DNA of 64,000 nt from an uncultured Gammaproteobacteria bacterium (lineage in GTDB: Bacteria > Patescibacteriota > Microgenomatia > Daviesbacterales > UBA10151). Under the pieces are notes generated by a model. The model saw nothing but the letters and a program-made list of their open reading frames with translations. It was not told where the DNA came from and made no database searches. The first letter of the stretch is position 1. Each line of letters starts with the position of its first letter. Location: the NCBI GenBank assembly GCA_964459095.1, contig CAYWKL010000001.1, forward strand, positions 21,253 through 85,252. The letters are read 5' to 3'. Below are positions 3,440 to 27,381 of the stretch, piece by piece. The position numbers and the translations under genes are program-made.

Positions 3440-4395
3440 GTAGTTTAAAAATTGTAGTTACAGGTGGGGCAGGTTTAATTGGATCTTGGGTAGTTGATTA
3501 TCTCCTATCAGATAAAGATCTTAAAGTAAAAGAAATTGTTGTTTTAGACAATTTTTTTAGGGGAACAAGAGCTAATTTAAGAGAAGTTTTAAAAAATAAA
3601 AAGGTAAAGGTAGTTAAGGGTGATATCAGAGATATAAGTCTTGTAAATAAAGTAATAAAAAACGCAGATTTTGTAATACATGAAGCAGCAATAAGAATCA
3701 CTCAATGTGCTGAAAATCCAAGAGAGTGTAATGAAGTATTGGTTGACGGGACTTTTAACATTTTAGAAGCTTGTGTTAAACAAAAGGTAAAAAAACTAAT
3801 TTTTAACTCTTCTGCTTCTGTTTATGGAGACCCCTCATATCTTCCAATGGATGAGGATCACCCATACAATAATTTAACAGCCTATGGAGCTGGAAAAATT
3901 GCAAATGAACATATGGCAAAAGCTTTTAGAAAAATGTATGGATTAAATTATATGTGTCTGCGCCCTTTTAATGTATACGGACCAAGAATGGATATTTACG
4001 GCGCATATACAGAAGTTTTAATAAGGTGGCTTGATAGAATAGATGAAGGGCTTCCGCCAGTTATTCATGGCGATGGCAAACAATCAATGGATTTTGTGTA
4101 TGTTGAAGACGTTGCTAAAGCCACAATGTTAGCGTTAAAGTCCAAGATTAATGAAGGTGTTTATAATGTAGGGACTGGAAAAGAAACTGATCTTAGAACT
4201 TTATTAAATTTGCTTTTAAAGGTAAATAAATCAAAGTTAAAACCTATTTTTGAAAAGCAAAGAACTGCAACTCATGTTTCAAGAAGAAGAGCTGATATAA
4301 AAAAAGCAAAAAAGGATTTAGGGTTTGTTGCTAAAACATCTGTTAAGGAGGGTTTAAAAAAGTTAATTGAATGGAAAAAAGAAAGCGTCTTGTAA
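3436..4395 (+). CDS. NAD-dependent epimerase/dehydratase (extended SDR)
   Basis: 'VTGGAGLIGSW' GxxGxxG motif. 'YGAGK' (YxxxK) catalytic motif. 319 aa. Has a 4-nt ATGA overlap with the upstream gene. Confidence 0.8.
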   Translation: MSSLKIVVTGGAGLIGSWVVDYLLSDKDLKVKEIVVLDNFFRGTRANLREVLKNKKVKVVKGDIRDISLVNKVIKNADFVIHEAAIRITQCAENPRECNEVLVDGTFNILEACVKQKVKKLIFNSSASVYGDPSYLPMDEDHPYNNLTAYGAGKIANEHMAKAFRKMYGLNYMCLRPFNVYGPRMDIYGAYTEVLIRWLDRIDEGLPPVIHGDGKQSMDFVYVEDVAKATMLALKSKINEGVYNVGTGKETDLRTLLNLLLKVNKSKLKPIFEKQRTATHVSRRRADIKKAKKDLGFVAKTSVKEGLKKLIEWKKESVL

Positions 4396-4399
4396 AACC

Positions 4400-5524
4400 A
4401 TGAATATCCCCTTAACAAAACCCTACTTCAGCAAAGATGAAGAAGATGCAGTCATTAAGACCCTTAGGTCTGGCTGGGTTACGCAGGGTCCAAAAGTAGA
4501 GGAATTTGAGAATTTGGTAGCAAAATATACAGGAGCTAAGTATGCTAGCGCTGTTTCATCGGCCACAACTGGACTCTTTTTATCCCTTTATGCATTAGGT
4601 GTAGATCCTGGGGATGAGGTAATTGTTCCTTCTTTTACTTTTATTGCCTGTGCAAATGTAATTGTGCACTTAGGAGGACAACCAGTATTTGTTGATATAG
4701 ATTCTGAAACATATAATCTTAGTCCAGCTCTGGTTGAGAAGAAAGTTACTAAAAAAACTAAAGCAATAATTGCTGTAGATCAAATAGGACTTCCTTGTAA
4801 TATAAAAGAAATTTTAAAAATTGCTAGAAGAAATAATATTCATATTGTTGAAGATGCAGCATGTGCCATTGGAAGCAAGGTTAATGGAAAAATGGTGGGC
4901 AGTTTAGGACATTTAACAGTTTTTAGTTTTCATCCAAGAAAATCAATAACAACTGGTGATGGGGGAGTAATAGTAACAAACAATAAATCCTTAGATAAAA
5001 AGCTAAAGATGTTGAGGCAACACGGAATGTCTGTTTCTGACGTTAAAAGGCATAAATCAAACAAAGTAATTAAAGAATCTTACCGGTTTGTTGGTTTTAA
5101 TTTCAGAATGACAGACCTTCAAGCTGCAGTTGGAGTAGAGCAAATGAAAAAGCTTCCTGAAATACTTAAAAAAAGAAGACTTTTAGCAGAACGTTATACT
5201 AATGCATTTAAAAATAAAAAAAATATAATCACTCCTTTTGTTCCCAAGGGTTTTGTTCACAATTATCAATCTTATATGATTAGATTAAATACTAAAAAAG
5301 TAAGTGTTGCTGCTTTGAGGCAAAGACTATTAAATTTAGGAGTTAATACCAGGTTTGGAATTATGGCTTCTCACCTAGAACCTGCATATACAAAAATGAT
5401 GGGGAAAATTTCTTTACCTGAAACAGAAAAAGCAACAAGGCAAACTTTGATTTTACCCCTCTATTATCATATGACAAAAGAGCAACAAGAATTTGTCATT
5501 GATGAGATTTTAAAGGCAACTTAA
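4400..5524 (+). CDS. DegT/DnrJ/EryC1/StrS-family sugar aminotransferase (second copy)
   Basis: 'MNIPLTKPYF…', 'VSSATTGLFLSLYALGVDPGDEVIVPSFTFIACANV'. The longest ORF starts at 4367 and overlaps the upstream gene. The ATG at 4400 fits the family's N-terminus better. Confidence 0.85.
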   Translation: MNIPLTKPYFSKDEEDAVIKTLRSGWVTQGPKVEEFENLVAKYTGAKYASAVSSATTGLFLSLYALGVDPGDEVIVPSFTFIACANVIVHLGGQPVFVDIDSETYNLSPALVEKKVTKKTKAIIAVDQIGLPCNIKEILKIARRNNIHIVEDAACAIGSKVNGKMVGSLGHLTVFSFHPRKSITTGDGGVIVTNNKSLDKKLKMLRQHGMSVSDVKRHKSNKVIKESYRFVGFNFRMTDLQAAVGVEQMKKLPEILKKRRLLAERYTNAFKNKKNIITPFVPKGFVHNYQSYMIRLNTKKVSVAALRQRLLNLGVNTRFGIMASHLEPAYTKMMGKISLPETEKATRQTLILPLYYHMTKEQQEFVIDEILKAT

Positions 5525-6665: not shown

Positions 6666-9401
6666 ATGCTAAGAAAATTTAGCTCAAAAATCTTTAAGTT
6701 CATAAATAATCATTTCTCACTTTTTTTATTGGCTGTAGTGTTTATCTCTTTAGGACAAATGATTTTTATGGATGTGTGGCAGGATGACCAAGCCCTTTTT
6801 TTTAAATTGGCCCACATAAATGAGCCAGCGGGATTCTTTGGGGATGGACCGTTTGGTGCAGGGCCCTATCGATATGCTGCTACCCCATTTATTCCGATTT
6901 ACCACTTCTTTAAATTTAACACTTACGCCTATTTTGCTTTTATGCTCACTTTATACGGTCTTGCAACCATTGCTTTATATAAAACTTTTAAACTTATTTT
7001 AGGAGATACTGCTGGAAAAGTTTCGGGATTCTTATTTGCAGCAGGGTACATAACTTCTGATGGCGCTTACAGAATGGCAAATAGTGTAACTACTAGTTTC
7101 TCAGTTATATTTGTGTCTTTAATTCTCTATTCTTACTGGAAATATTTAAGAAAAAGAGGAACTGTTTGGTATATTCTTGCACTTATCTTTTTCTTTCTAT
7201 CTCAAGAACTGGCTATTACAAGGATGCATTATTTTTTTGCAGTAATAATTATATTTGAGATTATTTTTTTTATCTGGGGGAGTTCAATCAAAAAAATATC
7301 CTTTGTAATTTTAAGATTAATCCCATTTTTTATAGTTTTTTATCATTACATGATTTCTGGTGGAGATCCACGAGTTGGAGAGTCTTCAAGTTATTTTTTT
7401 GCATTTCTAAACAATAAATTCTATTTATATTATGGATTTTTTGCATCCCTAGCTAATTTAATAATTCCTGACTGGCTACTTAAACCTATTTTCAATTTTT
7501 TATCTCAAGGCTCTAATTTAGGACTTTCAAATATTTCAAGATTAACACTTATTTTCTTGGTGCTTTTTTCTGCAACTGCTATTTTTTTTATTTTTAAAAA
7601 GAGTTTGAAGATTAAGATAACTTCATTTATCTTAATTATAAGTTGGCTCCTTTGGGCTAAAAACATTTTTAACACTCCTTTTTTAAGTCTTTCACCTTCT
7701 GATTTTTTTTCAGCTTATATAGGCGGAATAATATTAATAATTTATAGCTTAGGTATTTTTTACTTTGAGAGGTTTAAAAAAATTCTCATTTTTCTAGGAT
7801 TTTGGCTTGTGGGAAATATCATTGCATACTCAGCTTACTTCCCAACAGTTGCGTATGAAACAACTAACAGATATTTAACACATTCATTTCTGCCATTAGT
7901 AGCTATATACGGATTAATATTTAGCATTTGCATAAAAAAGAAGGGTTTTACTAAATATATAGCTTATTTAATTATGGTGATTGCCTTTCTTAATATTTTC
8001 GCTTCAATTCAATATCAGCAAAATATCCTAATTAGCAGAAGCTTTAAAACCAAGAGTTTTTATAGCCAGCTAAAAACTTTGCTCCCTGAAATAAAAAAGG
8101 GTGACATTATATTCTTTGATCTTGCTGATTCAAACCAAGGGATATATAAAGATGCTATCTCTGCCGCGATGATGCCCGATACTACCTCGTTTGCATGGAG
8201 ATATGGGATTGATAGGTATGATTTTAAGTTAACAAATGATTTCAATGAGTTATTAAAAATATTCTCTGATGAGAAAAAAAATCCCCAGCAAGTCCACTCT
8301 TTTTGGTTTTCAGGTAAAGACTTAGTTTCAACTTCCAAAGATGTAAGAAAATACTTACAGGGATCTCTAAATGTAGAAAAAGATATTGATCTTAACTTAA
8401 CATCAAATGCTCAATTAGAAAATAAAAACGACTCAACTTTATATAGTCAAGAAGATATTAAAATTGATTTTGAAGACCCAATTAAAAATTTGGTTCCATT
8501 AACTTTAAGTTTAATTATAAAAGCTAATCCTTTAGACTTAAGAGATCTGAAATTTCCACTAATAAACACTGCTTTAAATGAACCAACAAAAGTAAAATAT
8601 AGTTTGCTAGGTGTTAATGAAATTCTACATTTTTTTGAGTATCAAAAATTCAAGAATTCCTTCTATCAAAATTTAAAGTTAAAAACTTCAAGTAACTGGC
8701 AGGATAGAGTTTTAGAGAACTTGATGGATCAGGACTCATCTAGTGTTTGGCAATCTGATAGAGTTCTATGGAGGGATAACAGAGCTCTTGTAGAAATAGA
8801 ACTTCCGACCGAAAGTACGCTTAGTAAATTAGTTTGGGTAAATGGTTTTCCTAACAACACACCTATTTCCTATTCAATTGAAAGTTCCCTAGATGGAAAA
8901 AATTGGACTCAGGTATTAATAGTAAATAAAAATGAAAAAATAATTGACACAAGACCTCAAATAGTTAGTTTTAAACCTACAAAGGTAAAGCATATTCGTA
9001 TGGTTATAACAGCTACAATTGGAGGGGACTCCCCTAGCCTGTCAGAAATTTGGGTAGTTCCTTCAAGATTTAACGATTTGGAAATAGAAGAAGCTGAAAA
9101 TTATTTAACAAATCCCTTTCTGTATATCAGCGAAAAGAGCCATTTCTTCAACTTACTTAACTTAACCTCAAATACAGGCAAGACATCGCTTTATTGGAAA
9201 AATGATAAAAGTGAAGCTTTTCAAACAAGTAAAGATACACAAATTAATATAATCTATGATGGAATACCAAGAGTATACGAAACCCCTATTCCCGCAGGAG
9301 GATTAAACCTTTCAAGTATCATGTTATCGAATTTTACTATCCCCGGAGATATATCAATATTAAATATCAGCTCTTCAGTAAAGCCATTGAAAAAATTATG
9401 A
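6666..9401 (+). CDS. Large polytopic membrane protein (GT-C-like?) with a C-terminal F5/8-type-C (discoidin)-like carbohydrate-binding domain
   Basis: About 450 aa of hydrophobic helices with 'DVWQDDQ' near the N-terminus. The C-terminal domain 'SSSVWQSD…LVEIELPTESTLSKLVWVNGF…YSIESSLDGKNWTQ' matches the discoidin pattern. Confidence 0.55.
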   Translation: MLRKFSSKIFKFINNHFSLFLLAVVFISLGQMIFMDVWQDDQALFFKLAHINEPAGFFGDGPFGAGPYRYAATPFIPIYHFFKFNTYAYFAFMLTLYGLATIALYKTFKLILGDTAGKVSGFLFAAGYITSDGAYRMANSVTTSFSVIFVSLILYSYWKYLRKRGTVWYILALIFFFLSQELAITRMHYFFAVIIIFEIIFFIWGSSIKKISFVILRLIPFFIVFYHYMISGGDPRVGESSSYFFAFLNNKFYLYYGFFASLANLIIPDWLLKPIFNFLSQGSNLGLSNISRLTLIFLVLFSATAIFFIFKKSLKIKITSFILIISWLLWAKNIFNTPFLSLSPSDFFSAYIGGIILIIYSLGIFYFERFKKILIFLGFWLVGNIIAYSAYFPTVAYETTNRYLTHSFLPLVAIYGLIFSICIKKKGFTKYIAYLIMVIAFLNIFASIQYQQNILISRSFKTKSFYSQLKTLLPEIKKGDIIFFDLADSNQGIYKDAISAAMMPDTTSFAWRYGIDRYDFKLTNDFNELLKIFSDEKKNPQQVHSFWFSGKDLVSTSKDVRKYLQGSLNVEKDIDLNLTSNAQLENKNDSTLYSQEDIKIDFEDPIKNLVPLTLSLIIKANPLDLRDLKFPLINTALNEPTKVKYSLLGVNEILHFFEYQKFKNSFYQNLKLKTSSNWQDRVLENLMDQDSSSVWQSDRVLWRDNRALVEIELPTESTLSKLVWVNGFPNNTPISYSIESSLDGKNWTQVLIVNKNEKIIDTRPQIVSFKPTKVKHIRMVITATIGGDSPSLSEIWVVPSRFNDLEIEEAENYLTNPFLYISEKSHFFNLLNLTSNTGKTSLYWKNDKSEAFQTSKDTQINIIYDGIPRVYETPIPAGGLNLSSIMLSNFTIPGDISILNISSSVKPLKKL

Positions 9402-11681: not shown

Positions 11682-12851
11682 ATGTCACACTTTCACTCCC
11701 TTTATAGACAATTAAAAAATAAATTTCAAAAAAGCAATTTATTTAAACCCATTTCCTTTTTGTTACTTTTTTCCATCCCGAGCGTGTTAGTTACTTTTTT
11801 TTTACTTGAAATATTTGTAAGAATTTTTCTTCCAGTAAGCGATGCCCCAGATATTTACTTTGACCCAAACTTGGGAAATATATTTGTTCCAAACCAAAAA
11901 GGTGTTTTTGTCAAAGGAAAAAGTAGCGAAATCAAGGCCAAATATAATATTAATAACAAAGGCTGGAATTCCCCCTATGACTATGGGTACGAGAAACCCA
12001 CAGATACAATAAGAATTGCTGTTATTGGAGATTCCTATATCGAAGCTTTGCAAGTTGATTATGATAAATCCTATCCTTATTTACTAGAGAATTTACTGAA
12101 TAAGAATGACAATCACGGAAAGAAAGTTCAGGTTTATACTTTTGGACATTCTGGAGCAAATCTTTTCCACTACCAAAGCATCCTTACTGAAGTAGTTAAA
12201 AAATATAATCCGAACTTTGTAATTATTAACATAGTTTTAAATGACTTTGATGAAAGCTTTTACGGACTAAGCAGAAAAGATAACTGGTCCTTAATTTATG
12301 AGGATTCTAAGTTTAAAAAAGTCTTTCCAAAAGAAGTTAGTAATTTGCCTCTTAAAAAATTTCTTAGACACTCTGCAATTGTAAGATATCTGACTATAAA
12401 TCTCGATCTAGTCAATACTTCACCAATTTTCAACAAACTTTTTTATGCAGAAACAAGAAATTACAACAAAAATGAAACTCCTAAACAAATCGATAAAAAG
12501 ACTATTGCTTTATTGATTCGCTTTGTTTTAGAGAATATCAATAAAGAAAACAAACAAAATAATATAAAAACCATACTTATATTGGATACAGATAAGAAAA
12601 AAGTTTACGAAAATAATTACACCTTTAAAAATTTTTACATTTCAGAAACTAAGAATATTGCTCAACAGTTAGGGATACCTATTCTAAATCTTGAAGAAGT
12701 ATTTGAAAAGGATTGGAAAAATAATCATATGAGATTTAATTTCGAATTTGATGAGCATTGGAATGAATATGGTCATAAAACAATAGCTAATGCCCTTTTT
12801 GAGTTTTTAGACAAAAGGAATTTATATCTTAAGATTTTTGAGAGCAATTAG
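11682..12851 (+). CDS. Membrane-anchored SGNH/GDSL hydrolase-fold protein, AlgX/AlgJ-like glycan O-acyltransferase candidate
   Basis: N-terminal TM helix. Block I 'IAVIGDSYIEA'. 'VLNDF'. C-terminal 'FDEHWNEYGH' resembles the D-x-H-W signature of AlgX/AlgJ. Confidence 0.5.
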   Translation: MSHFHSLYRQLKNKFQKSNLFKPISFLLLFSIPSVLVTFFLLEIFVRIFLPVSDAPDIYFDPNLGNIFVPNQKGVFVKGKSSEIKAKYNINNKGWNSPYDYGYEKPTDTIRIAVIGDSYIEALQVDYDKSYPYLLENLLNKNDNHGKKVQVYTFGHSGANLFHYQSILTEVVKKYNPNFVIINIVLNDFDESFYGLSRKDNWSLIYEDSKFKKVFPKEVSNLPLKKFLRHSAIVRYLTINLDLVNTSPIFNKLFYAETRNYNKNETPKQIDKKTIALLIRFVLENINKENKQNNIKTILILDTDKKKVYENNYTFKNFYISETKNIAQQLGIPILNLEEVFEKDWKNNHMRFNFEFDEHWNEYGHKTIANALFEFLDKRNLYLKIFESN

Positions 12852-13937
12852 ACTTTTTGACGATGCTTTTTCCCAAGTAAACTGTCTTCCCCACTTAAGA
12901 GCTCCTTTAGACAACTGGTGATAAAGTTTTTTATTGGTTATTAATTTGTGAATTTCATTGGCTAAATCAACAGGACTTCTTTTAGTAATTATTCCACTTA
13001 TCCCATGCTTTACTGAATCTACCAAACCAGCAGATTTGTAAGCAACAACTGGAGTCCCTGCAATATTAGCTTCTATATTAACAAGTCCCCAACCTTCTCT
13101 TTTAGAGGGGTTTACTAATATATGAGCTTTTGACAATAATTCAAATTTCTTTTTTTCATCAATATGTCCTAAAAATTTAATCTTTTTTTTGAAATAAGCT
13201 TTTTCTACCTTCTTTTTTATTTTTTTCTCATACTCTTTTGTCTCCCCTTTTCCTACAACCCAAAAGGAATAATTCTTATTTTTTTTATATAGAAGTTCAA
13301 AGGTTTTAAGAACGTCTTCCATTCCTTTATCTCTTGATAATCTTCCCAAATACATTATGGTTGGGTTTTTCTCTTTCTTGTTTTTTTTGAATTTCACTAC
13401 ACTTACACCGTGATGGATTACATAAATATTACTTTTTTTGATACCAAAGGAAATTAAATCTTTTTTTGTAGAATCGGAAGCAGTAATAAAGATAGTATTT
13501 TTATATATACTAAATATAAGAGGTTCCAAAAGGTAACCTAACAATCCAACAATAAAATTTATTGGGAATTTAAAATGATTGAAGAACCATACTTCTTTTG
13601 CTACTTCCTGGATAATCGCCAATTTAGGATTTTTAACATATAAGGGTGTAAAAAAAGGGATTCCATGAAACTGATCTATTATCAAGTCAAAATTCTTTTT
13701 GTTTTTCAAGTAAAAAAATAACGCAGCAAGCTGAACACCCAAGTATTGATTCCCTTTCCTTATAATTTCTACCTGATCAATATTCTCTTTTCCCCTTGAA
13801 TTTTCAAATCTTGAAGAAAGAAGGGTTACTTTATGCCCTTTTTTTATCCACCCTTTAGAGTGTTCATGAATACTTTGTTCTGCACCTCCTGCTAAGGGGT
13901 GTTTGGGATCTCGCCAAGAAAGAATTAGAATATTCAT
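12822..13937 (-). CDS. GT4-family (GT-B) glycosyltransferase
   Basis: 'WRDPKHPLAGGAEQ' N-terminus. E-x7-E region 'EGWGLVNIEANIAGTPVVA'. Confidence 0.85.
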   Translation of the reverse strand: MNILILSWRDPKHPLAGGAEQSIHEHSKGWIKKGHKVTLLSSRFENSRGKENIDQVEIIRKGNQYLGVQLAALFFYLKNKKNFDLIIDQFHGIPFFTPLYVKNPKLAIIQEVAKEVWFFNHFKFPINFIVGLLGYLLEPLIFSIYKNTIFITASDSTKKDLISFGIKKSNIYVIHHGVSVVKFKKNKKEKNPTIMYLGRLSRDKGMEDVLKTFELLYKKNKNYSFWVVGKGETKEYEKKIKKKVEKAYFKKKIKFLGHIDEKKKFELLSKAHILVNPSKREGWGLVNIEANIAGTPVVAYKSAGLVDSVKHGISGIITKRSPVDLANEIHKLITNKKLYHQLSKGALKWGRQFTWEKASSKSLIALKNLKI

Positions 13938-13945: not shown

Positions 13946-15967
13946 CTAATTAATTACCTCCCAAATTTGCGAAATTGAATTTTCATATATTTTCACAATT
14001 TTATAATCTCCTGGAGAAAGTTTTAATCTATTTTCAAAACCTTGATTTTTACTTAAAATTATGTACTTTGCACCTAATTTATAAAGATATTCTCCTGCTT
14101 TTTTGTGATCAGTAATTCCAAAAAGCTTATTATTGTAGAGCAACTTTTTCCCAGATAGTACCCCAACATAGTCTCTTATATTTCCATAAGAAGGATTAGT
14201 ACTATCAAATGTGGCACAAACTAGACATTTTGAATCCTCAACAACTGTAACTCCTTTTTTCTTCACTTTTAAATGTAAAAGAGCGTCATATTCAGACTGA
14301 CTAATTATATATTTATGACTGAGTTTGTTTAAAACTAAGTATGTCACATAAGCACCGCTAATAACTGCAACTGTAAGTATTAACAAATAAAAAATACTAA
14401 GATGCTTTTTTGAAATAAGATAAATAGTAAAAAGAAATAATAAAACACTGGCTATTATAATAATTGGAGTTATAAGTTTGATTTTAGGTCTTATTAAGAA
14501 ATAGATTGTAGCGACAGATAGATTCCGAAGTTTAACTCCTTCTTTATCAACTGGGAAATTCTTATTAATCTGTATAGTAATGTCATCTCCAATCTTTACT
14601 TTAATATAGGGATGATTTAGAAGTTTTGATAAATCTTTTTGAGAAAAATTTTCGAAAACTATACTTTCCTTTTTTAAAATAATTTTTTTATTGTCAGATA
14701 AAGTTATTATTACACCAGCTCCGCTGTAAGATAAGTTAAAGGAATTTATATTATCAAATTTAACTACTGAACTAGGGTCATTTATCTTGTCAACAACAGA
14801 GGGTATGTTAATTAACAAATTGTCCTCTGTAACTTTATCTTTATAGAAAGGCTCCTGAAAGTTTTCTTGATATATCCTAAAATCAACTAATTCTATACTT
14901 TTGGTCTCTGGGTTAAATATAATTCCCATTCTATATTCAGGAGTTTGATACCAATAGCTCCGTACCTTGGTATTTAGAAGATCACTTCCTCCTATTAAAC
15001 TTGAGGGTGTTTCTTTAAATTTGGCTTTAAACCATTTTCCGAATTCTTCCATAGTTAGAAATTCCATTCCAGTCTTATTTGCCAAACCAACAAGTGTATC
15101 AAGCTGTGTCGAGTATGATTTAGAATAAACATCTTCTGGTAAATCCGCTTCTAGCCCAAATACAGCTTGACCAAAGAGGTTAGAGTTTTTTAAGGCATAA
15201 AGTTTAAATAGGTTTTTTAAATAGTCATTATTAAACCCCAAAGTTAAATAATCTTGACTGCTGTATTTACTTACAATTGAATCTCCATAAGCATTTAAAG
15301 GGTCCCTTGGAGCCCACTGAATTGTAACTACACCTAGCTTATTTTTCTCTGTGGCAGGAATTCCTGCATGAAACTTGCTCGGATAAAATGGATATGACCA
15401 ATATTGCCCCCAGATAGAGTAATTATCTGTTGAATACTGATCTGCCACAGAAAGGTTGGTAATTATTCCGTACTTTTTAAACATATACTCTAGCGAGAAA
15501 CTGTCTATCCACCAAGCCCCTACAGATTTTGGATAGAATCCAAATCTGCCTTTAAACTGCGCAAATAGTATATTTATCAATTTAATCCTCTCTTTTTGCT
15601 TATAACCTACTAAAAATAAAGACCGTGCTCTGTGCCAAGAATCAGAAGAATGATAATCTACACCAGCCCTTTTTGCTAAATCAGGTGTAACTTCAACAAA
15701 AATTCCTATTTCCTGTTTTTTGTCAAAATCTTTAATGAACTCAATAATTTTAGAATCTTCTAATACGTCGTAAGTTACAAGCCAAGTAGAGGGTAATCTT
15801 CTTTTTATTATTTCCTTATACTCTGCTTTAATACTTTCAAATGGAGTCTTGTTATAATTTGAAATCCTTACAGGATGGATAAGATTTATGTACTCTTGAT
15901 TTGCAAACACATTTTTTGGGAATAAAGAAAAAAAAATTACAAAAAAAAATAGGATAGTTGTTTTCAT
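13946..15967 (-). CDS. Secreted, C-terminally membrane-anchored protein carrying a conserved extracytoplasmic domain of unknown function (paralog of the N-terminal half of 44560..47982)
   Basis: Signal peptide. 'FVEVTP…SVGAWWIDSFSLEYM…DQYSTDNYSIWGQYWSYPFYP…VVTIQWAPRDP' aligns by eye with 'FLEVTP…SVGAWFIDSFSLNYM…DQYSTDNYQIWGQYFGYPYYP…VVITQWAPRDP' in the 1140-aa protein. Late TM segment 'IIIIASVLLFLFTIYLI'. Confidence 0.5.
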   Translation of the reverse strand: MKTTILFFFVIFFSLFPKNVFANQEYINLIHPVRISNYNKTPFESIKAEYKEIIKRRLPSTWLVTYDVLEDSKIIEFIKDFDKKQEIGIFVEVTPDLAKRAGVDYHSSDSWHRARSLFLVGYKQKERIKLINILFAQFKGRFGFYPKSVGAWWIDSFSLEYMFKKYGIITNLSVADQYSTDNYSIWGQYWSYPFYPSKFHAGIPATEKNKLGVVTIQWAPRDPLNAYGDSIVSKYSSQDYLTLGFNNDYLKNLFKLYALKNSNLFGQAVFGLEADLPEDVYSKSYSTQLDTLVGLANKTGMEFLTMEEFGKWFKAKFKETPSSLIGGSDLLNTKVRSYWYQTPEYRMGIIFNPETKSIELVDFRIYQENFQEPFYKDKVTEDNLLINIPSVVDKINDPSSVVKFDNINSFNLSYSGAGVIITLSDNKKIILKKESIVFENFSQKDLSKLLNHPYIKVKIGDDITIQINKNFPVDKEGVKLRNLSVATIYFLIRPKIKLITPIIIIASVLLFLFTIYLISKKHLSIFYLLILTVAVISGAYVTYLVLNKLSHKYIISQSEYDALLHLKVKKKGVTVVEDSKCLVCATFDSTNPSYGNIRDYVGVLSGKKLLYNNKLFGITDHKKAGEYLYKLGAKYIILSKNQGFENRLKLSPGDYKIVKIYENSISQIWEVIN

Positions 15968-16710
15968 CTTTTTATATGTTTCCTAGTGTAGAAATTAGTT
16001 TTTAATCTAAAATATACTCCTAAAGTATCCAAAAACATCCGAAAAATTGTTTTCCAAGAAATCCTACTGGTTTTTTTATCAAATTTAACTTCTAAAGGCG
16101 CTTCAAATATTCTCTTAAATCCCAAAGCTCTTGCAACTGCTAAAAGCTCTATATCCATTGCATATTTTTTCACAAACATTCTTGGTAGGACCTTTTTTAT
16201 CACATTTCTTTTAAATATTTTTATTCCACTTTGAGTATCAGTTAAAGGAAGTCCAAATAACGCCTTAACAAATATATGATAACCAATGCTTAAAGTTCTT
16301 CTTAGGAGTGGATAATTTACCCTTGAAACAGGATGCCTTTTTGAACCAATAATTATATCTGCATTATACCAAGTCATATGCGACATCAACATCATAATAC
16401 TAGCCGGGGAAATTTCTCTTCCTGCATCTATAAATGAAACGAGCTCTCCCCTACTTCTCATAATCCCATACCTTACCGCAAATCCCTTACCCCTATTTTG
16501 AGGGTAGTCAAAAATTCTAATCCTCTTTGATTTTAAATTTTTTACTTTTCTTTTAGTCTCTTCAGGATCACCATCGATCACACAAATAATTTCAAAATTA
16601 AAATTTTTTAGCCCTTCTAGTAAAACTTTTTCTATAGTTTGTAAATCTTTTCTTAAAGTTCTTGCCTGTTTGTAAGCGGGTACGATAACTGATAGTAATT
16701 TCTTTCTCAT
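15964..16710 (-). CDS. GT2-family glycosyltransferase
   Basis: 'LSVIVPAYKQARTL', 'ICVIDGDPEETK'. 248 aa. Confidence 0.8.
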   Translation of the reverse strand: MRKKLLSVIVPAYKQARTLRKDLQTIEKVLLEGLKNFNFEIICVIDGDPEETKRKVKNLKSKRIRIFDYPQNRGKGFAVRYGIMRSRGELVSFIDAGREISPASIMMLMSHMTWYNADIIIGSKRHPVSRVNYPLLRRTLSIGYHIFVKALFGLPLTDTQSGIKIFKRNVIKKVLPRMFVKKYAMDIELLAVARALGFKRIFEAPLEVKFDKKTSRISWKTIFRMFLDTLGVYFRLKTNFYTRKHIKR

Positions 16711-16749: not shown

Positions 16750-18003
16750 TCACCTTCTAAGGAGGATTATTGTAAGGATTGAAAGTATTATTAGCATAAT
16801 AAATGAAACCATCAACGAAACCATTATTACTTGTATTAAACTACTATGAAAATAAACTATTAAAATTATTTGAAGTAATGCTCCTATACAAGGGATAAAA
16901 ACAGTTTTAACTTTTCCTATTGATAAATTGAAATTTATTACTACCCAAGCTAGCGACAAAACAGTAATAAATAACCCATATGGAAGCAAAATCTGTGAAC
17001 CACTTAGGTAGGCTTTTCCAAAAAGAAGGGATATTGCTAAATCCGGAAATAAAAAATATATAAAAATAATGACCGAACTAAAAAATAATGTAATACCTAG
17101 TGTTAATAAAAAAACCTTAATGAATTTTTCATTATTTGAATTTTTCATCGAAATTATCGGAAACATTACTGAAGTAACTGGGGCAACTGCAAAGAAAATT
17201 ATTTTACCAAGGGAGGATACTGATGCGTAAATCCCTGCATTGAAACTATCAAAAAAATGCTTAACAAGAAGAACATCAGATGAGTAAAATGAAGTTAAGG
17301 TTATAAATTGCAAAAAGACCGGAATTGTATAAAGAAAGATAGATTTCATCTTTATTATAGAGTTTGATTTTTGAGTTCTCCTAATGTCTTTTAAGAAGTA
17401 AAAACTAAGTCCCCATCCAGCTATTGAGGCAATTAGAATCCCTAGTAAAGCTCCAAAAACTTTAAGTCCTAACAATACTAGTGCAAACCATAAAAAAAGT
17501 TTAATTAAAGTGTCAGAAAAAATACTTCCGACAAAAAGCCCGAACCTCAACATTCCTTGTAGGATTGCGCGATAAAATGCAGCCGGGATAAAGAAAAAAA
17601 ACCCAATTGAAACCAAATACAATAAAAAAGTATTATTAATATTTAAAAAGTCTGATATATTTGATGAAAAGATAGAAATTATAAATACTAAACCAAAACT
17701 TAAATAATAGATTTTTTTATTCAATAAGCTATAAATTAAGCGAATTTCATTTTTGCTTTTTGCTGATGATACAAATTTAACTATTACAAGGCTAAGAGAT
17801 TGCGGAAATATCGCCAAAATGGTTACCAAAGATATTAGAGCTGCAAGCACTCCATAATCAGAGGGTCCTAGCACTCTGCCCATAGTCATATGATAAATAT
17901 AATTAATTGCATTTGCGCCGTTGGTCCCAAGAACCATAATTAAACTACCTGAAAAAAAAGGGTGTCCAACCACTAGTAAAAAATTTTTCCTCATGATACC
18001 CAA
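16750..18003 (-). CDS. Wzx-like (MOP-superfamily) polysaccharide biosynthesis/flippase protein
   Basis: About 12 predicted helices. N-terminal 'GANAINYIYHMTMGRVLGPSDYGVLAAL' is typical of Wzx/RfbX. Confidence 0.6.
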   Translation of the reverse strand: MGIMRKNFLLVVGHPFFSGSLIMVLGTNGANAINYIYHMTMGRVLGPSDYGVLAALISLVTILAIFPQSLSLVIVKFVSSAKSKNEIRLIYSLLNKKIYYLSFGLVFIISIFSSNISDFLNINNTFLLYLVSIGFFFFIPAAFYRAILQGMLRFGLFVGSIFSDTLIKLFLWFALVLLGLKVFGALLGILIASIAGWGLSFYFLKDIRRTQKSNSIIKMKSIFLYTIPVFLQFITLTSFYSSDVLLVKHFFDSFNAGIYASVSSLGKIIFFAVAPVTSVMFPIISMKNSNNEKFIKVFLLTLGITLFFSSVIIFIYFLFPDLAISLLFGKAYLSGSQILLPYGLFITVLSLAWVVINFNLSIGKVKTVFIPCIGALLQIILIVYFHSSLIQVIMVSLMVSFIMLIILSILTIILLRR

Positions 18004-20169: not shown

Positions 20170-21041
20170 TGTCTTAAATATCTGTAGTATGCCCTTGGGA
20201 ATCTTAATGAGGAAAAAAAAGAAAAAATAATTCCAGGAACTCCATCTAAAATCCCTTTATGCCTTATTAAAGTCATAAAAAACCAAACAGATGGTTTAAT
20301 TAAAAAGTAGTTAATTCCTTCAAAAATATTTTTTTGAACATGTTCACGAATAAGTTCATCTTTAATTAAATTTACATACCTAGAATTCCTATCAAGATAT
20401 CTTTTAAAGGTTGGGTCTGCAATATGAAGTAAGTCATTTTCTAACCAACCCACCTTTCCATTCACTACAATTTGCTCATGTACGCTTTTGCAAGGAAAGT
20501 ATGCTTTTCCTTTTTTTACCAACCTTATTACTCCATCCGGATAAACACCTCCGTACTTTAGAAAGCTTCCAAGAAAATAGTTTAGACGCGGTATAAAAAA
20601 TGCACAATATTCTTTAGTATCTTTGCCTATATTTCCATCTCTTTTCTCAAGCAAGGCTACATGTTCCCTGAATAATTTTCTTTTTTTTAATCCTTTCTCG
20701 TATTGATCAACTTCCTCATCTTTCATATTCAAAACCAAAATTATCTCTTTTCCTAAGGACTCAGTAACTCTTTCATCCGCATCAAGTTGCAGAATCCACT
20801 CATTAGTGGCTGCATCAAGTGCTTTTTGTTTGTTTATATGAAATATTGGTGGGTTTTCAGTCTCAATGATTTTTGCATTAAATTTCCTAGCAATTTCAAG
20901 AGTATGATCGCTAGATCCTCCATCAACAACAACGACTTCTGAGGCTATATTTTTTACTGAGCTCAAACATTCCTCTAGTGTTTTTTCTTCATTATAAACA
21001 GCAAGCACAATTGATAAATTTTTCATATTATTTAGCTGCAA
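20166..21041 (-). CDS. GT2-family glycosyltransferase (KdtX/WaaE-like)
   Basis: 'LSIVLAVYNEEKTLEECL…VVVVDGGSSDHTLEIA…QLDADERV'. Confidence 0.8.
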   Translation of the reverse strand: MQLNNMKNLSIVLAVYNEEKTLEECLSSVKNIASEVVVVDGGSSDHTLEIARKFNAKIIETENPPIFHINKQKALDAATNEWILQLDADERVTESLGKEIILVLNMKDEEVDQYEKGLKKRKLFREHVALLEKRDGNIGKDTKEYCAFFIPRLNYFLGSFLKYGGVYPDGVIRLVKKGKAYFPCKSVHEQIVVNGKVGWLENDLLHIADPTFKRYLDRNSRYVNLIKDELIREHVQKNIFEGINYFLIKPSVWFFMTLIRHKGILDGVPGIIFSFFSSLRFPRAYYRYLRQ

Positions 21042-22647
21042 TTAAATAAAAAGCCGTACCACCATCTGGAAAATAAACTATTTTCTTAATTTCAAAATCA
21101 TTTATGTATCTTAATCCATCATACTGACTTGAAGTAACTACATAAAGCCTTGCTGGTTGAGGAAAAACCTCAATTGGTTCCCAGTACTCAAATATATATC
21201 TGTCAAACGCGGAAACTAGATTAAAACTCCTAGTGTGTGAATTATTATACTCGACTTCTTTAACATATTCCTCTAATGGCTTTTTTGTATAGAAAAGGAA
21301 AAAAATATAAGGTTGTGATCTTACGTTGGTCATATAAACTTCTTTGTATTCTGGGTGTTTTTGTACATATTCAACAATTTGCTTCATACCATATTGCCAA
21401 TCTATAGCATACCTTTTTGCATATTCTGAATAATATTTTTGGCAATATTGATTAAAGTTCAAAAGAAAGAAGAATAAAAGTATAAAGCCTGTGATTATCT
21501 GAACCCAGCCCAATTTAGAAATGGTTAGGAACCTATAAATTCCGTAAGCCTCAATTATTTGCCAACTACCTAGAGAAAACATAGCTCTTGCCGCATGAGG
21601 TACTTCTGTACTAAATGAGGCAGCAAGGGGTGCAAGTATCGCTACAATTAAAATCACTAAGCCTGTTTTTTTTCTCGATAATAAAATTAGCACCGAACCC
21701 AAAATTAAAAAGGGTAGATCTAGCAAATAAAATTCTCCTGTTACTCGTGAGGATAATCTTGGATTTTTATCCCCATTTTTAAAAAGATAGTCGTAAGAAA
21801 AGTGTGATAAATAATTACTTAGAACTACGTTTACTTTTCCTAAACTTAAATTCTCGGTTTTAGAGAAAATATAAGTTTTTTTGGCTAAATCATCAGGTAT
21901 TAAGGTTTGCTTTGCTCGCGAAATTCCTAAAAGAGCTGGGTTAAAAAATACTACTCCTCCAATCAAAAATATTAAGATTAAACCAATTAATAAATCAGTC
22001 CTTTTGCTTTTTAGCTCATTGTAAAAAAGTACAAAAAGTAAAATTAAAACAATAGGGACAATAATTTTGGGACTATGATAACTTAAAAAGGTAACCCCAA
22101 AAGTAAGAAAAGAGAGCCCTAAAAATCCATTTTTTTTATCAAGGCCTTTAAAAAATAAATAAAGACTAAGCAGGAAAAAGAAAACTGTGAAGTTTAACTC
22201 ATGATTAAATCTTGAAAAATGAATAGCATATGGCGAGATGGCTAGCAGAAATGATGCTATTAGCCCTATTAAATTATTTTTAAAGACAACTCTTCCAAGA
22301 AAGAAAATTATTAAAACATTTAATGTCCCAAAAAATACTGAGGGCAATCTAACGCTAAGTTCTGAAAGCCCAAGGATCTTTACAAAAATAGCAGTTAAAT
22401 AAATATGAACAGGGTGCTTGTCATCCAAAAAGGAAATAAAATATGCTGGGAAGAAATTCCCTCTCTCATCTCTTCCATAACTCGCGATTGTCCATGCATT
22501 ATAACCTACTGCAGCCTCATCCCAGGAAATAGATGGAGGTACCTCTGTAATTTTATAAATCCTTACAATACCAGCAAAAGCAATAATAAGTATTAAAATA
22601 AACCAAACTTTATACTTAAAAACTTGTTCTAATTTATTCATATACAC
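21028..22647 (-). CDS. GT-C glycosyltransferase, PMT/ArnT-like (GT39/GT83-type), paralog 1
   Basis: N-terminal TM, then 'PPSISWDEAAVGYNAWTIASYGRDERGNFFP' (loop-1 DE motif). More than 10 helices. Soluble C-terminal domain. Confidence 0.7.
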   Translation of the reverse strand: MYMNKLEQVFKYKVWFILILIIAFAGIVRIYKITEVPPSISWDEAAVGYNAWTIASYGRDERGNFFPAYFISFLDDKHPVHIYLTAIFVKILGLSELSVRLPSVFFGTLNVLIIFFLGRVVFKNNLIGLIASFLLAISPYAIHFSRFNHELNFTVFFFLLSLYLFFKGLDKKNGFLGLSFLTFGVTFLSYHSPKIIVPIVLILLFVLFYNELKSKRTDLLIGLILIFLIGGVVFFNPALLGISRAKQTLIPDDLAKKTYIFSKTENLSLGKVNVVLSNYLSHFSYDYLFKNGDKNPRLSSRVTGEFYLLDLPFLILGSVLILLSRKKTGLVILIVAILAPLAASFSTEVPHAARAMFSLGSWQIIEAYGIYRFLTISKLGWVQIITGFILLFFFLLNFNQYCQKYYSEYAKRYAIDWQYGMKQIVEYVQKHPEYKEVYMTNVRSQPYIFFLFYTKKPLEEYVKEVEYNNSHTRSFNLVSAFDRYIFEYWEPIEVFPQPARLYVVTSSQYDGLRYINDFEIKKIVYFPDGGTAFYLIAAK

Positions 22648-24157
22648 TAAATATTGCTTTTCCGGAGAGATCTTTTATAGTTTTTGTCTTTTCTCTACTA
22701 CCAACGTATTCCCCTGGTTTAGCAAATATAATTAGTTTCTTGTCTTTCTCGTTTTCTAATTCACTCAAGTTAAAGGAGAAGTTATTAAAGCTTTTGACTA
22801 AAGAATGTCCCCATTTATCTGGAGGATTATATTCAACTGTTTTTTGGAACTTATCAGGAGGAAACTCTAAATAGTATAAAGCAAATATATAAGGTTGCCC
22901 TAAATAATCAGATATGAAGACTTTATCGTATTTTCTTAAATCAATACTCCCTTTAAATATTTCTTTATAAGGGTATTGCCAATCTAAAGAGGATCTTAAG
23001 TTGTAGTTTTTAATAAAATCATAAAAATAGGCGAAGAAAAAGATAGCATAAAAAAACAATACAACGCAGTAGAAAAATCTTAACTTGAAAGCATCCTTTA
23101 AATAAACAATTCCATAAGCAGTAATGATAGATATAAATGGTATAAATAAAATAGCCCTTAGGGCATGAGGCGATTCTTTGCTGATTGCCGCAGGAATTAA
23201 ACTCAAAAATAATATATAGAAAATTACACCTGACTTTTTTTGTTTTTGCTTAAGGACCGCAAAAATTCCCACCGAAATAAAAATAATATCTAGCAAATAG
23301 AGCATCCCTCCAAACCCTGTGTGGCTTCTTAAGTTTTTGTCTCCATTTGTAAAAAGAAAGTCAGGGCTCAAATCTGATAAATAGTTGGAAGTGAAATTAT
23401 ATAATACATTTACTGGACTATCTCCCTGGCTTAAAATACTGGTAGTCTTAAATCTTGAAGTTTGCTCAACGACATTTAACTTAAATGCAGGATAAAAAGA
23501 TATAAGAAATAATAAAAGAAGCAAGGGTAAGTAAACCAAACTCTTTCTATTTAAATTTTTAAGCCAACTAATAAAAACCCATATAAGAAAAAGGGGAGTA
23601 ATTATTCTAAAACTGTTATAGCTGTAAATGCTCGGTATAAAGGCAAGGATTGTTACTAATTTTACTAAGAAAGAATTTTTGGAGTTCAAAAAAGAAAAAA
23701 ATCCAAGACAAAAAAATGCTATACCTGCTGTTGCCTCAAAACCCGCTCTGCTCACTATAAAAAACCAAGGAGATATGGACAATAAAAAGGAAGATAAGAG
23801 TCCTATTTTTTCTCCCTGTTTTGTAAATAGTTTCCGGCAAATTAAAATAATTAACATCATTGTTGCAAATGCATATAAACTTGCAGGAACTCTTACAGAC
23901 CATTCATTTAAGCCGAAAAGTTTTACAAAAAAGGCAACTGAGTAAATATAAACAGGTAATTTAAATTCACCAAATGCTCTAAAATGGACTGGTAAAAATT
24001 TACCCCACTCATCTTTTAGACTCTCTGATATAGAATAAGCATTATATCCAATGGATGCTTCGTCCCAGTACAAGGAGGCAGGTATTTGAGGTAAAAATAT
24101 TAATCTTGTTGAAAGAAAGAAGAGAGTTATTAAAAAAAATGCTATTTTTATTTTCAC
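22634..24157 (-). CDS. GT-C glycosyltransferase, PMT/ArnT-like, paralog 2
   Basis: 'PASLYWDEASIGYNAYSISESLKDEWGKFLP'. Same architecture as 21028..22647. Confidence 0.7.
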   Translation of the reverse strand: MKIKIAFFLITLFFLSTRLIFLPQIPASLYWDEASIGYNAYSISESLKDEWGKFLPVHFRAFGEFKLPVYIYSVAFFVKLFGLNEWSVRVPASLYAFATMMLIILICRKLFTKQGEKIGLLSSFLLSISPWFFIVSRAGFEATAGIAFFCLGFFSFLNSKNSFLVKLVTILAFIPSIYSYNSFRIITPLFLIWVFISWLKNLNRKSLVYLPLLLLLFLISFYPAFKLNVVEQTSRFKTTSILSQGDSPVNVLYNFTSNYLSDLSPDFLFTNGDKNLRSHTGFGGMLYLLDIIFISVGIFAVLKQKQKKSGVIFYILFLSLIPAAISKESPHALRAILFIPFISIITAYGIVYLKDAFKLRFFYCVVLFFYAIFFFAYFYDFIKNYNLRSSLDWQYPYKEIFKGSIDLRKYDKVFISDYLGQPYIFALYYLEFPPDKFQKTVEYNPPDKWGHSLVKSFNNFSFNLSELENEKDKKLIIFAKPGEYVGSREKTKTIKDLSGKAIFSVYE

Positions 24158-25807
24158 TTAATTTTCAACAATTTCAAAAGCTATATCTCCATTTAGAAAA
24201 TTTATAGTTTTAAGTTTTTCTTTTCTAGAAAAATCTCCATATTTACCAATAAAGAGGATTTTTTTATCTGGATACTTTTTTACAATATCTGCATATGTAG
24301 TCCCTTTATCAGCTAAATCAGGAAAATAGAACTTGTCAAAATTTAAAACTCTTATCCAATCGTAAGTTTCAAATCTATTTAAGTTAGGATCATTTTGAAA
24401 CTTACTTGGGTCATATTTAGAAAAAAATAAAGTAAACATGTGTGGCTCGCCGTAATGTCTAGAGAATACAATTAGGTCGTAGTTCTCTTTATTTCGATTT
24501 ATATAATCCACAACCTGTTTATAACCATACTGCCAATCCCTTGAATATCTTGTTGAGTACAAACCGTAGTAAAGATAAAAATAGTATCCAATAGAAATAA
24601 TGAGAATAAATATAGTAAAAAAAATAGATGCAAGAAATAGTCTGCTTTTTCTAAATATCCAACCAAAAAATATTGATAGACCATAGGCTGTAAGTACTGA
24701 ATAAGCTGGAGCTACAATAAGAGTCCTTAAAGCATGAGGGGTACTATCGTTTGTTACCGATACTGGAATAATTCCTAAAAGTATCCAAGAAAAAATAAAA
24801 AAAGCAAATCTCTCTCTTCTTTTTACAAGAAAATATACTCCTAATAAAATGAATGGTGCTTGAAAAAGAAAAAGTTCACCCATTCTCTGAACATGGTGTT
24901 GTTTATGAGGTGCTCCGCTAATAAACAAAAAGTCAGGTGTGAAGTGGGCTAAATAATTTGAAATGAAATATAAACTAACATACGTGACTCTGTTATGGAT
25001 TAAAACGGGGAGCGGATCAGGCAGATTTGAATTTCCTCTTGCTTCATTAATCCTGGGAACCAACCCTGGATCATCTGTGATACTTACGAGTTTATATCTA
25101 GCACTCCCTTCCCCACTTAAAACAAAAGGGATCATCGGAATCAAAAGAATAAAAAAAAGTACTAAACTTATTAAAAAATATTTTTTGTAATTTATTAAAT
25201 ATTTAAAATAAAATGTCCAGTTAGCTAAAAGAAATAGCGGAGTAAAAACTCTTGCGCTATTGTAGGTATACAAAGAGATTGCCAGCGGTATACTCGAGAC
25301 TACTAGGTATTTACTTTTAGAAAAACCTTTAATTAATAGCCAAAAACCCAAGAGGATCCAGAATATAGAGAAAGACGATTCAAAAGAAGCTCTTGTTAGG
25401 TGTATATGCCAAGGAGAGATACTTAATAAAAATGCAGAAATTAATCCTATTTCAAATTTTTTAAATAACTCTTTAGTGAGAAGAAAAATTAGTAAAACGC
25501 TAAGAGTCCCATAAACTACAGGTGTAATTCTAACACCAAGTTCATTTAACCCAAATATCCAAATTCCTGGAATTGAAAAATAAATTTGAACAGGAAGTTT
25601 GTACTCACCATAAGATTTAAAATGCAGTGGAAAAGATACTCCCCATTCGTCTTTTCCAGTCTTTAGAATTGAATAAGCATTGTATCCTATAGATACTTCA
25701 TCCCAGTTTAAAGACGGAGGAATCTCAGCAACTTTATATATTCTTAGAAATAAGGCTAAAAAAAGAATAAATGAAAGAAAAAATATTGTTATTTTGGTTC
25801 GTTGCAT
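24158..25807 (-). CDS. GT-C glycosyltransferase, PMT/ArnT-like, paralog 3
   Basis: 'PPSLNWDEVSIGYNAYSILKTGKDEWGVSFP'. Confidence 0.7.
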   Translation of the reverse strand: MQRTKITIFFLSFILFLALFLRIYKVAEIPPSLNWDEVSIGYNAYSILKTGKDEWGVSFPLHFKSYGEYKLPVQIYFSIPGIWIFGLNELGVRITPVVYGTLSVLLIFLLTKELFKKFEIGLISAFLLSISPWHIHLTRASFESSFSIFWILLGFWLLIKGFSKSKYLVVSSIPLAISLYTYNSARVFTPLFLLANWTFYFKYLINYKKYFLISLVLFFILLIPMIPFVLSGEGSARYKLVSITDDPGLVPRINEARGNSNLPDPLPVLIHNRVTYVSLYFISNYLAHFTPDFLFISGAPHKQHHVQRMGELFLFQAPFILLGVYFLVKRRERFAFFIFSWILLGIIPVSVTNDSTPHALRTLIVAPAYSVLTAYGLSIFFGWIFRKSRLFLASIFFTIFILIISIGYYFYLYYGLYSTRYSRDWQYGYKQVVDYINRNKENYDLIVFSRHYGEPHMFTLFFSKYDPSKFQNDPNLNRFETYDWIRVLNFDKFYFPDLADKGTTYADIVKKYPDKKILFIGKYGDFSRKEKLKTINFLNGDIAFEIVEN

Positions 25808-27378: not shown

Positions 27379-27381
27379 AAT

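Follow-up and report, generated by a model that had tools for sequence, protein, structure and literature searches.

What domain do two large proteins of a bacterial surface-glycan cluster have in common, and what could it do there? The question arises from a 64-kb stretch of DNA from an uncultured bacterium of the Daviesbacterales (contig CAYWKL010000001.1; hereafter the window), which amounts to one long glycosylation cluster. Two minus-strand open reading frames (ORFs) within it, confirmed at 13946..15967 and 44560..47982, encode proteins of 673 and 1140 amino acids (aa), and a preliminary description of the window had proposed that both carry a discrete, previously unrecognised domain located outside the cell. 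The homology and fold evidence presented here leaves us highly confident that the domain forms a deep branch of DUF3863/DUF3864, centred on the Patescibacteria, within the 7-stranded glycoside-hydrolase/deacetylase barrel superfamily. The fold and the superfamily are already known; current family models miss this branch.

The shared domain and its relatives

Pairwise comparison confirmed that the similarity of the two proteins is real. BLASTP aligned residues 2-396 of the 673-aa protein with residues 3-405 of the 1140-aa protein (157/406 identities, 39%, E 1e-83), and our own local alignment scored 734 against 44 +/- 7 for 200 shuffles (maximum 85). Identity in the local alignment was 40% over residues 24-400, 47% over 90-330 and 66% over 140-230. 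The preliminary description had placed the shared range at about residues 90-330; similarity does hold there, but the true N-terminal unit extends over residues ~24-400 or more and comprises a barrel plus a beta-sandwich. All three of the motifs it quoted occur in both proteins, at positions 145 and 150 (YPKSVGAW.IDSFSL.YM), 176 and 181 (DQYSTDNY.IWGQY..YP.YP), and 217 and 223 (QWAPRDP.N.YG) of the shorter and longer protein, respectively, although the first as written (AWWID) fits the 673-aa protein alone, the 1140-aa protein having AWFID. It also overlooked a C-terminal domain of ~125 aa common to both proteins (residues 545-673 versus 995-1140; HHalign probability 99%, E 6e-18). Given this second shared domain, the 673-aa protein looks like the 1140-aa protein with the membrane core cut to two helices.

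With a G+C content of only 31% in the window, similarity of this kind might be put down to biased composition or low complexity in an AT-rich genome, with no real domain behind it. The BLASTP E-value and the local score relative to its shuffles refute this explanation, as do the hundreds of independent cluster representatives that match the family profile (counts below) and a confidently predicted fold. We therefore dismiss it and regard the claim of a discrete domain as supported.

AlphaFold2 (AF2) modelling of the 673-aa protein from the family alignment gave a predicted local distance difference test (pLDDT) score of 92.4 and a predicted template modelling (pTM) score of 0.90, with barrel strands at residues 25-33, 60-64, 85-90, 148-150, 170-174, 214-218 and 266-270. 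The model of the 1140-aa protein (pLDDT 86) shows the same barrel and sandwich, followed by ~13 membrane helices and then the C-terminal domain (Table 1).

Single-sequence methods barely detect the relatives of this domain. Scanning the 673-aa protein, the 1140-aa protein and a 662-aa paralog (described below) with Pfam and NCBIfam returned nothing meaningful, and neither of the first two matched PF12979 in Pfam even at E <= 1. Searches of the PDB with single sequences yielded a marginal match to 3lm3 (E 0.005 and 0.055) that became significant with profiles only. A 55-member family profile (A1) matched 3lm3_A in hmmsearch at E 6.5e-7, in two colinear stretches (146-220 and 304-385), and scans with PF12979 produced weak matches in 11 of the 55 single members, the best at 9.3e-5. 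When the trimmed domain alignment was compared with DUF3863 sequences in HHalign, the probability was 97.7% (E 7e-12, 320 columns), the DUF3863 side being a chimera of two fragments ~90-100% identical to 3lm3, which was used because searches with two 3lm3 fragments gave only proteins of at most 293 aa.

Structure comparison led to the same protein. Foldseek against the PDB placed 3lm3 first for the 673-aa model (E 6e-15, 419 columns, 16% identity, target template modelling score 0.64) and also for the 1140-aa model (E 4e-10 over 422 columns). The next matches of the 673-aa model were the HP0310 protein 3qbu, which resembles carbohydrate esterase family 4 (CE4; E 8e-7), 3rxz, 3s6o, PuuE (3cl6) and PgdA (2c1g), followed by members of glycoside hydrolase (GH) families GH57 (2b5d, 3p0b) and GH38 (1hty). 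3LM3 is BDI_3119 of Parabacteroides distasonis, a 7-stranded barrel with a beta-sandwich deposited in the PDB as a 'putative glycoside hydrolase/deacetylase', and its relatives carry PF12979 and PF12980 (DUF3863 and DUF3864). The profile, HHalign and Foldseek results together argue against the view that the domain was previously unrecognised. The preliminary description could not assign it to a known hydrolase or esterase family, and indeed no named one claims it: the scans gave no Pfam or NCBIfam match, and the relatives are all labelled 'hypothetical protein'. Literature searches on DUF3863, DUF3864, PF12979, PF12980, BDI_3119 and 3LM3 returned no relevant paper, and a broader one on glycosylation in the Candidate Phyla Radiation (CPR) nothing informative.

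The family is large. A search of 5.8 billion proteins returned 81 relatives of ~600 aa, all unnamed or 'hypothetical', about a fifth of which carry a precomputed PF12979 flag marked 'faint'. Named relatives belong to the Patescibacteria (Azam-, Ames-, Woese-, Levy- and Daviesbacteria), mostly Microgenomates. When 1.84 billion cluster representatives (50% identity) were searched with the profile, 963 matched at E <= 0.001 and 536 at E <= 1e-30, with architectures of ~600 aa, ~750 aa and ~1140 aa as well as proteins in which the domain is internal. Scanning one genome per GTDB species yielded 171 loci, and informative titles among them were Microgenomates or Patescibacteria. Many carrier genomes (L013, L014, L018-L020 and others) bear the title 'uncultured Gammaproteobacteria bacterium isolate binchicken_...'; the proteins they encode share 40-50% identity with those of Daviesbacteria and Woesebacteria, and these titles are probably placeholders or mislabels.

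Conserved residues, topology and genomic context

Across 330 family domains, G88, E92, Q177, D181, G187, W218, R221, S236, Q238, G271 and E273 (673-aa numbering) are 100% invariant, and R34, Y122, R127, W152, D176, W186, S233 and D239 are conserved in at least 97%. Both window copies retain every one of these residues, with E97, Q182, D186, W224, R227, S243, Q245 and E283 as invariant equivalents in the 1140-aa protein. The search for conserved acidic or His residues that the preliminary description had suggested as a source of catalytic candidates points to the invariant carboxylates E92, D181 and E273; no His is conserved, the best His column (H112) reaching only 66%.

R34, E92, D176/Q177, W218/R221 and E273 fall 0-4 residues past strands beta1, 3, 5, 6 and 7, respectively, by the AF2 strand boundaries. 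The post-strand face of beta/alpha barrels is the usual site of catalytic residues, and the predicted strand positions suggest that most of the invariant residues lie on this catalytic face. The end of strand beta1 reads N-P-V-R. In strand beta4 (S148-V-G150-A-W-W-x-D155) no carboxylate is invariant: D155 occurs in 308/330 domains (93%), with Gly in the rest. In the sandwich, W339, R346, D362 and Y366 are conserved in common with 3LM3. Each window protein also deviates from its relatives at one near-invariant position. The 673-aa protein has His31 (15875..15877) where 50/55 relatives have Asn in N-P-V-R, and the 1140-aa protein has Phe68 (47779..47781) where most have Trp in A-T-W-L.

The N-terminal hydrophobic segments of both proteins, as read from sequence, resemble Sec signal peptides, with VFA/N and ILA/A at positions -3/-1. 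Because a signal peptide precedes the domain, and because the domain follows a membrane core of glycosyltransferase (GT) fold C (GT-C) in other proteins, it probably lies outside the cell, in agreement with the preliminary description. We consider an extracytoplasmic role coupled to glycan assembly likely. Two cysteine pairs were also seen: a D..CL.C consensus in the C-terminal domain of the short type (CLVC in the window protein, 13949..14320(-); family alignment of 55) and two nearly invariant cysteines, C383 and C388, in the sandwich of the 1140-aa type. In both pairs the cysteines may be linked by disulfides, which would suit a position outside the cell.

The membrane part of the 1140-aa protein matched PglB in Foldseek (6gxc/3rce/5ogl, E 4e-5 over 640-666 columns), then AftA (7e-3) and AftD (9e-3); no Pfam GT-C or NCBIfam model matches it or the 662-aa paralog, which has the GT-C core and the C-terminal domain without the DUF3863-like domain. 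The invariant alignment columns of the core form a loop motif, G610.G612.WG615....D620..WH624, that reads GFWGPNGHDGVWH in the 1140-aa protein and GHDGVWH in the 662-aa paralog. The invariant D620 is in a conserved loop, predicted to face outward, that comes after helix 583-601. A counterpart of the paralog adjoins the fusion gene in another locus (L005) too. The 662-aa paralog and the GT-C core of the 1140-aa protein may represent an unclassified GT-C family that acts right after the Wzx flippase.

Other genomes show the same partners covalently joined. In P0397, P0377 and P0450 the domain is fused behind GT-C cores of the PMT_2 type, and in P0333 (1639 aa) a domain-plus-GT-C protein is fused behind a Wzx flippase in a single polypeptide, which corresponds to a fusion of window genes 47975..49453 and 44560..47982, overlapping by 8 nt. 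That the two occur naturally as one protein suggests that flippase and transferase form a physical complex. To our knowledge, an N-terminal DUF3863-like ectodomain has not been described for GT-C enzymes.

Gene neighbours were counted over 80 species-level loci (26 fusion-type, 54 short-type); the counts are lower bounds because neighbour searches used single query sequences. A Wzx gene lies directly upstream in 22/24 fusion-type loci that have enough flanking DNA and within 3 kb upstream in 18 of the 43 short-type loci. Short-type genes have a small GT2 gene directly upstream in 17/43 cases and a GT4 gene directly downstream in 13/38; a downstream GT4 is also present in L001, L003 and L008. 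The order Wzx, small GT2, domain protein, GT4 recurs on a Woesebacteria chromosome (L001), and L005 has the order PTPS_related (four genes), Wzx, fusion, paralog, PMT_2, GT2, GT2, GT4. Similar clusters were found in L003, L008 and L009, and synteny is conserved in L001, L005, L008 and L009.

A putative glycan-processing enzyme and its rivals

Tethering beside enzymes of polyprenyl-linked sugars, together with conservation that resembles a carboxylate-based active site lacking metal ligands, its pocket aromatic and lined by Arg and Gln, leads us to favour a glycan-processing enzyme. The reading we prefer, held at about even confidence, is that the domain is a catalytic glycan-processing module, most probably a metal-independent glycoside hydrolase or transglycosylase; the analysis itself shows homology, fold, elements of topology, conserved residues, fusions and neighbouring genes, from which we infer catalysis, the type of bond and the substrate. 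On the pattern of conserved residues, we are moderately confident of catalysis as such, and by analogy with GH57 transglycosylases and GH38 trimming mannosidases, which offer the closest functional parallel to the proposed activity, we hold a hydrolase or transglycosylase specifically with slightly less than even confidence.

In the mechanism that we envisage, the domain would be held on the outward side of the membrane, either by its own two-helix anchor (short type, as in the 673-aa protein) or by a fused GT-C transferase (1140-aa protein), and the GT-C partner would be a polyprenyl-phosphate-dependent glycosyltransferase. E92, D181 and E273 would serve as the catalytic residues, with Q177, R221, S236, Q238 and W218 forming a sugar-binding pocket. 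The substrate would be a lipid-linked or nascent surface glycan just after Wzx flipping; the domain could, for example, trim, cleave or re-attach this glycan during its transfer or extension by GT-C enzymes.

Several points weigh against this proposal. The DUF3863 lineage has no member of known activity, 3LM3 included. Strand beta4, which carries the nucleophile in GH57, has no invariant carboxylate, and the Foldseek E-values put the fold nearer to CE4/PuuE-type amidohydrolases than to GH57 or GH38. A site that binds phosphate or uronate would likewise account for the invariant Arg residues (R34, R127, R221 and R346). Strong conservation would be expected of tight ligand binding as well as of catalysis, and the apparent grouping of the invariant residues reflects predicted strand positions rather than spatial distances.

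Membership in the well-characterized families of the superfamily was considered and rejected in each case. CE4 enzymes are defined by an Asp-His-His metal triad with a catalytic Asp and His (TFDD, H(S/T)xxH and LxH motifs). The CE4 barrel fold was recovered by Foldseek (3qbu, 3rxz, 2c1g and 6h8n, all at probability 1.00), but the domain has no conserved His, no TFDD, H(S/T)xxH or RxPY motif and no PF01522 match. GH38 enzymes bind zinc through His/Asp ligands and use an Asp as nucleophile; here no His is conserved, PF01074 does not match, and the Foldseek similarity is only E 3e-3. GH57 is defined by five conserved sequence regions, with a Glu on beta4 as nucleophile and an Asp as proton donor; we found no PF03065 match, no invariant beta4 carboxylate and a Foldseek similarity of only E ~5e-4. 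The preliminary description had named CE4 and the GH families as assignments that would make the domain less novel. The superfamily is indeed the same, but lacking a conserved His, the domain is neither a CE4 nor a GH38 metal enzyme. A Wzz-type co-polymerase role for the short type, considered for its two-helix anchor, was dropped as well, since the predicted fold is a barrel and not a coiled coil.

Three other functions compete with the enzymatic proposal. The domain could be a non-catalytic module (a pseudo-enzyme) that binds glycan or acceptor, keeps hold of the acceptor or of the chain as it grows, and provides substrate recognition for the GT-C transferases, a possibility that we regard as unlikely but take seriously. 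Behind PMT_2 cores (P0397, P0377, P0450) it sits where GT-C enzymes normally carry a soluble periplasmic domain, its pocket is rich in invariant aromatics (W152, W186, W218, Y122, Y183), and the same superfamily contains CE4 pseudo-enzymes such as BA3943 (7bkf/6hm9, among the Foldseek matches of the 1140-aa model). Nonetheless, the invariance of three carboxylates, a Gln, an Arg and two Ser/Gln positions in 330 sequences down to ~25% identity looks more like catalysis, the short type retains every invariant residue without having a GT-C core, and the 1140-aa protein already possesses the usual C-terminal soluble domain. Less probable still is an atypical CE4/PuuE-type de-N- or de-O-acetylase, or an amidase, that lacks the canonical metal site and acts on the acetamido sugars of the cluster. 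PgaB, IcaB and PelA deacetylate exopolysaccharides and PuuE is metal-independent; the best structural matches after 3lm3 are CE4-like (3qbu, 3rxz, 3s6o and PuuE 3cl6), and the window carries genes typical of the synthesis of di-N-acetylated amino sugars (856-5524; GFO/IDH/MocA, hexapeptide acetyltransferase and two DegT). However, the Asp-His-His triad and a catalytic His are absent, beta1 ends in N-P-V-R rather than the TFDD of CE4, and PF01522 does not match even at E <= 1.

Lowest in our ranking, and very improbable, is an action on the polyprenyl-(pyro)phosphate linkage as an LCP-like ligase or phosphodiesterase, which would free the flipped glycan from its lipid carrier or pass it on; Arg residues would bind phosphate and carboxylates would bind Mg2+. 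Such a role would suit the close coupling to Wzx (22/24 fusion loci and one natural fusion), the occurrence of the invariant or nearly invariant R34, R127, R221 and R346 alongside E92, D181 and E273, and the lack of Wzy, WaaL and LCP Pfam families among the 33 window ORFs scanned, to which the other long ORFs are paralogous. Against it, we know of no member of the 7-stranded GH/deacetylase barrel superfamily with phosphoryl chemistry, and transfer from the lipid carrier would most obviously be assigned to the fused GT-C core.

In its boldest form, the enzymatic proposal would have the module found a new carbohydrate-active enzyme family, as a metal-independent hydrolase, a transglycosylase or a lipid-carrier-releasing enzyme that forms a physical unit with Wzx and an unclassified GT-C transferase; we consider this possible but rather doubtful. 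If true, it would mean a new route by which Microgenomates (CPR) polymerise, trim or attach a surface glycan outside the cell, and a first function for the DUF3863 lineage, including the 3LM3 protein of a gut bacterium. What is new here is an unannotated branch with recurrent flippase and GT-C coupling, which constitutes a testable lead. Assigning an activity would annotate many of the 'hypothetical proteins' among the 963 cluster representatives and give a first function to DUF3863/DUF3864, for which a crystal structure has existed since 2010 and our searches found no function. CPR bacteria have tiny genomes, and this one devotes at least 60 kb to surface-glycan genes; the domain might show in what way these organisms complete or remodel the glycan of their envelope, which is relevant to an episymbiotic lifestyle. 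If the domain proved to be an ordinary trimming hydrolase, the gain would be a new CAZy-type family and not a new principle.

The surrounding cluster and comparison with known systems

The gene content of the window (Table 1) supports the setting in a glycan-assembly cluster that the preliminary description had assumed. Eleven paralogous GT-C membrane proteins of the PMT_2 type, ~500 aa each, form one BLAST cluster, whose scanned members match PMT_2 or PMT; two more PMT_2-type ORFs (28029..29450 and 60228..61373) fall outside it, and three PTPS_related/YfhO-like paralogs are found at 50742..55750. GT-C transferases are unusually dense for a single 64-kb stretch. About a dozen GT2 and several GT4 enzymes, a PIG-V-like transferase, the two Wzx-type flippases and methyltransferases are also encoded. 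The gene set at 856..5524 is similar to those of pathways that make 2,3-diacetamido and other di-N-acetylated sugars, and the glycan of the cluster therefore probably contains di-N-acetylated residues. Of the flanking genes, the 911-aa protein may be a surface lectin or glycan-binding protein, and the SGNH/GDSL-like protein may act on the glycan of the cluster as an O-acetyl esterase or transferase. The two antisense ORFs are most likely spurious products of AT-rich sequence.

Table 1. Features of the window discussed in the text, with coordinates in nucleotides of the 64-kb stretch.
Feature	Coordinates	Strand	Basis or remark
673-aa protein, residues 1-22: N-terminal hydrophobic segment, likely Sec signal peptide (..NVFA/NQ)	15902..15967	-	Sequence; AF2 helix 2-14
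673-aa protein, residues 24-320: 7-stranded beta/alpha barrel, DUF3863-like	15008..15898	-	AF2, Foldseek, HHalign, conservation
673-aa protein, residues 321-485: beta-sandwich, first part DUF3864-like	14513..15007	-	AF2 strands 323-483; hidden Markov model stretch to 3lm3 313-404
673-aa protein, residues 494-549: two transmembrane helices, hairpin anchor	14321..14488	-	AF2 helices 494-519, 525-549; hydrophobic sequence
673-aa protein, residues 550-673: small alpha/beta C-terminal domain, homologous to 1140-aa C-terminus	13949..14320	-	HHalign, AF2
1140-aa protein, residues 1-24: likely signal peptide (..KILA/AS)	47911..47982	-	Sequence; AF2 helix 2-16
1140-aa protein, residues 26-470: second DUF3863/DUF3864-like barrel and sandwich copy	46573..47907	-	BLASTP, AF2, Foldseek, residue mapping
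1140-aa protein, residues 488-1000: polytopic membrane core, ~13 helices, GT-C fold	44983..46521	-	AF2, Foldseek, invariant columns
1140-aa protein, residues 1001-1140: C-terminal alpha/beta domain, same as end of 673-aa protein	44563..44982	-	HHalign, AF2
662-aa paralog of GT-C core and C-terminal domain	42579..44567	-	BLASTP 33%, E 3e-65, 102-646 vs 582-1112
Wzx-type flippase, directly upstream of 1140-aa gene, 8-nt overlap	47975..49453	-	Pfam Polysacc_synt_3 E 1e-55
Second Wzx-type flippase, two genes upstream of 673-aa gene	16750..18003	-	Pfam Polysacc_synt E 5e-17; same order in L001
Small GT2 glycosyltransferase, overlaps 673-aa gene start by 4 nt	15964..16710	-	Pfam Glycos_transf_2
GT4 glycosyltransferase, directly downstream of 673-aa gene	12822..13937	-	Pfam Glycos_transf_1 E 1e-35
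PMT_2-type GT-C array	21028..42582, 55747..59503	-	
PMT_2-type GT-C array, continued	60228..61373	+	
Sugar-nucleotide genes: GFO/IDH/MocA oxidoreductase, hexapeptide acetyltransferase, DegT aminotransferase, NAD epimerase/dehydratase, second DegT paralog	856..5524	+	
911-aa protein	6666..9401	+	F5/8 type C (discoidin, galactose-binding-like) domain at residues 673-789; no other Pfam match
389-aa SGNH/GDSL-like acylhydrolase, opposite strand, adjoins GT4 and 673-aa genes	11682..12851	+	
Two ORFs of 170-180 aa, antisense within PMT_2-group paralog and Wzx genes	34403..34945, 48564..49079	+	

The closest known relatives of the domain are the DUF3863/DUF3864 proteins themselves, with which it shares the barrel and sandwich, sequence homology detectable across both domains, and a set of residues (R34, T61-W62, S148, Q177, D181, G187, P-x-Y-P-S, E273, W339, R346, D362 and Y366 in 673-aa numbering). 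Identity to DUF3863 proper is only ~16-21%, and the window proteins score below the Pfam model; D176 is Ser there, E92 is without a clear counterpart, and the window branch has an extra insertion of ~25 residues after strand beta3. Whereas the branch is tethered to the membrane and joined covalently to GT-C or Wzx proteins, the DUF3863 proteins examined appear to be soluble two-domain proteins (449 aa for the 3LM3 chain, ~474 aa for the reconstructed sequence) in unrelated gene contexts, as judged from two uninformative loci, L006 and L007, where the genes appear frameshifted.

The membrane part of the 1140-aa protein resembles PglB, AftA and AftD in combining a 13-helix core with a C-terminal soluble domain. 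Unlike oligosaccharyltransferases, its sequence shows no WWDxG-type motif.

CE4, PuuE and HpPgdA-like proteins belong to the same 7-stranded barrel superfamily as the domain and are its second-best structural matches (E 8e-7 to 1e-3); several of these act extracytoplasmically on cell-wall or exopolysaccharide glycans. GH57 enzymes (AmyC, branching enzyme, 4-alpha-glucanotransferase) and the GH38 enzyme Golgi alpha-mannosidase II likewise have a 7-stranded barrel with further domains (E 5e-4 to 7e-3; 1k1x at E 7e-4 for the 1140-aa model). GH57 comprises metal-free retaining enzymes with carboxylate catalysts, including transglycosylases, and GH38 trims glycans during their maturation. In its setting, the domain is also reminiscent of PgaB, PelA, IcaB, PslG and BcsZ, outward-facing hydrolases or deacetylases that are encoded within polysaccharide operons and act during export. 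Those systems are synthase-dependent or involve other folds and families, whereas the partners of the domain described here are Wzx and GT-C proteins, to which it is often covalently fused.

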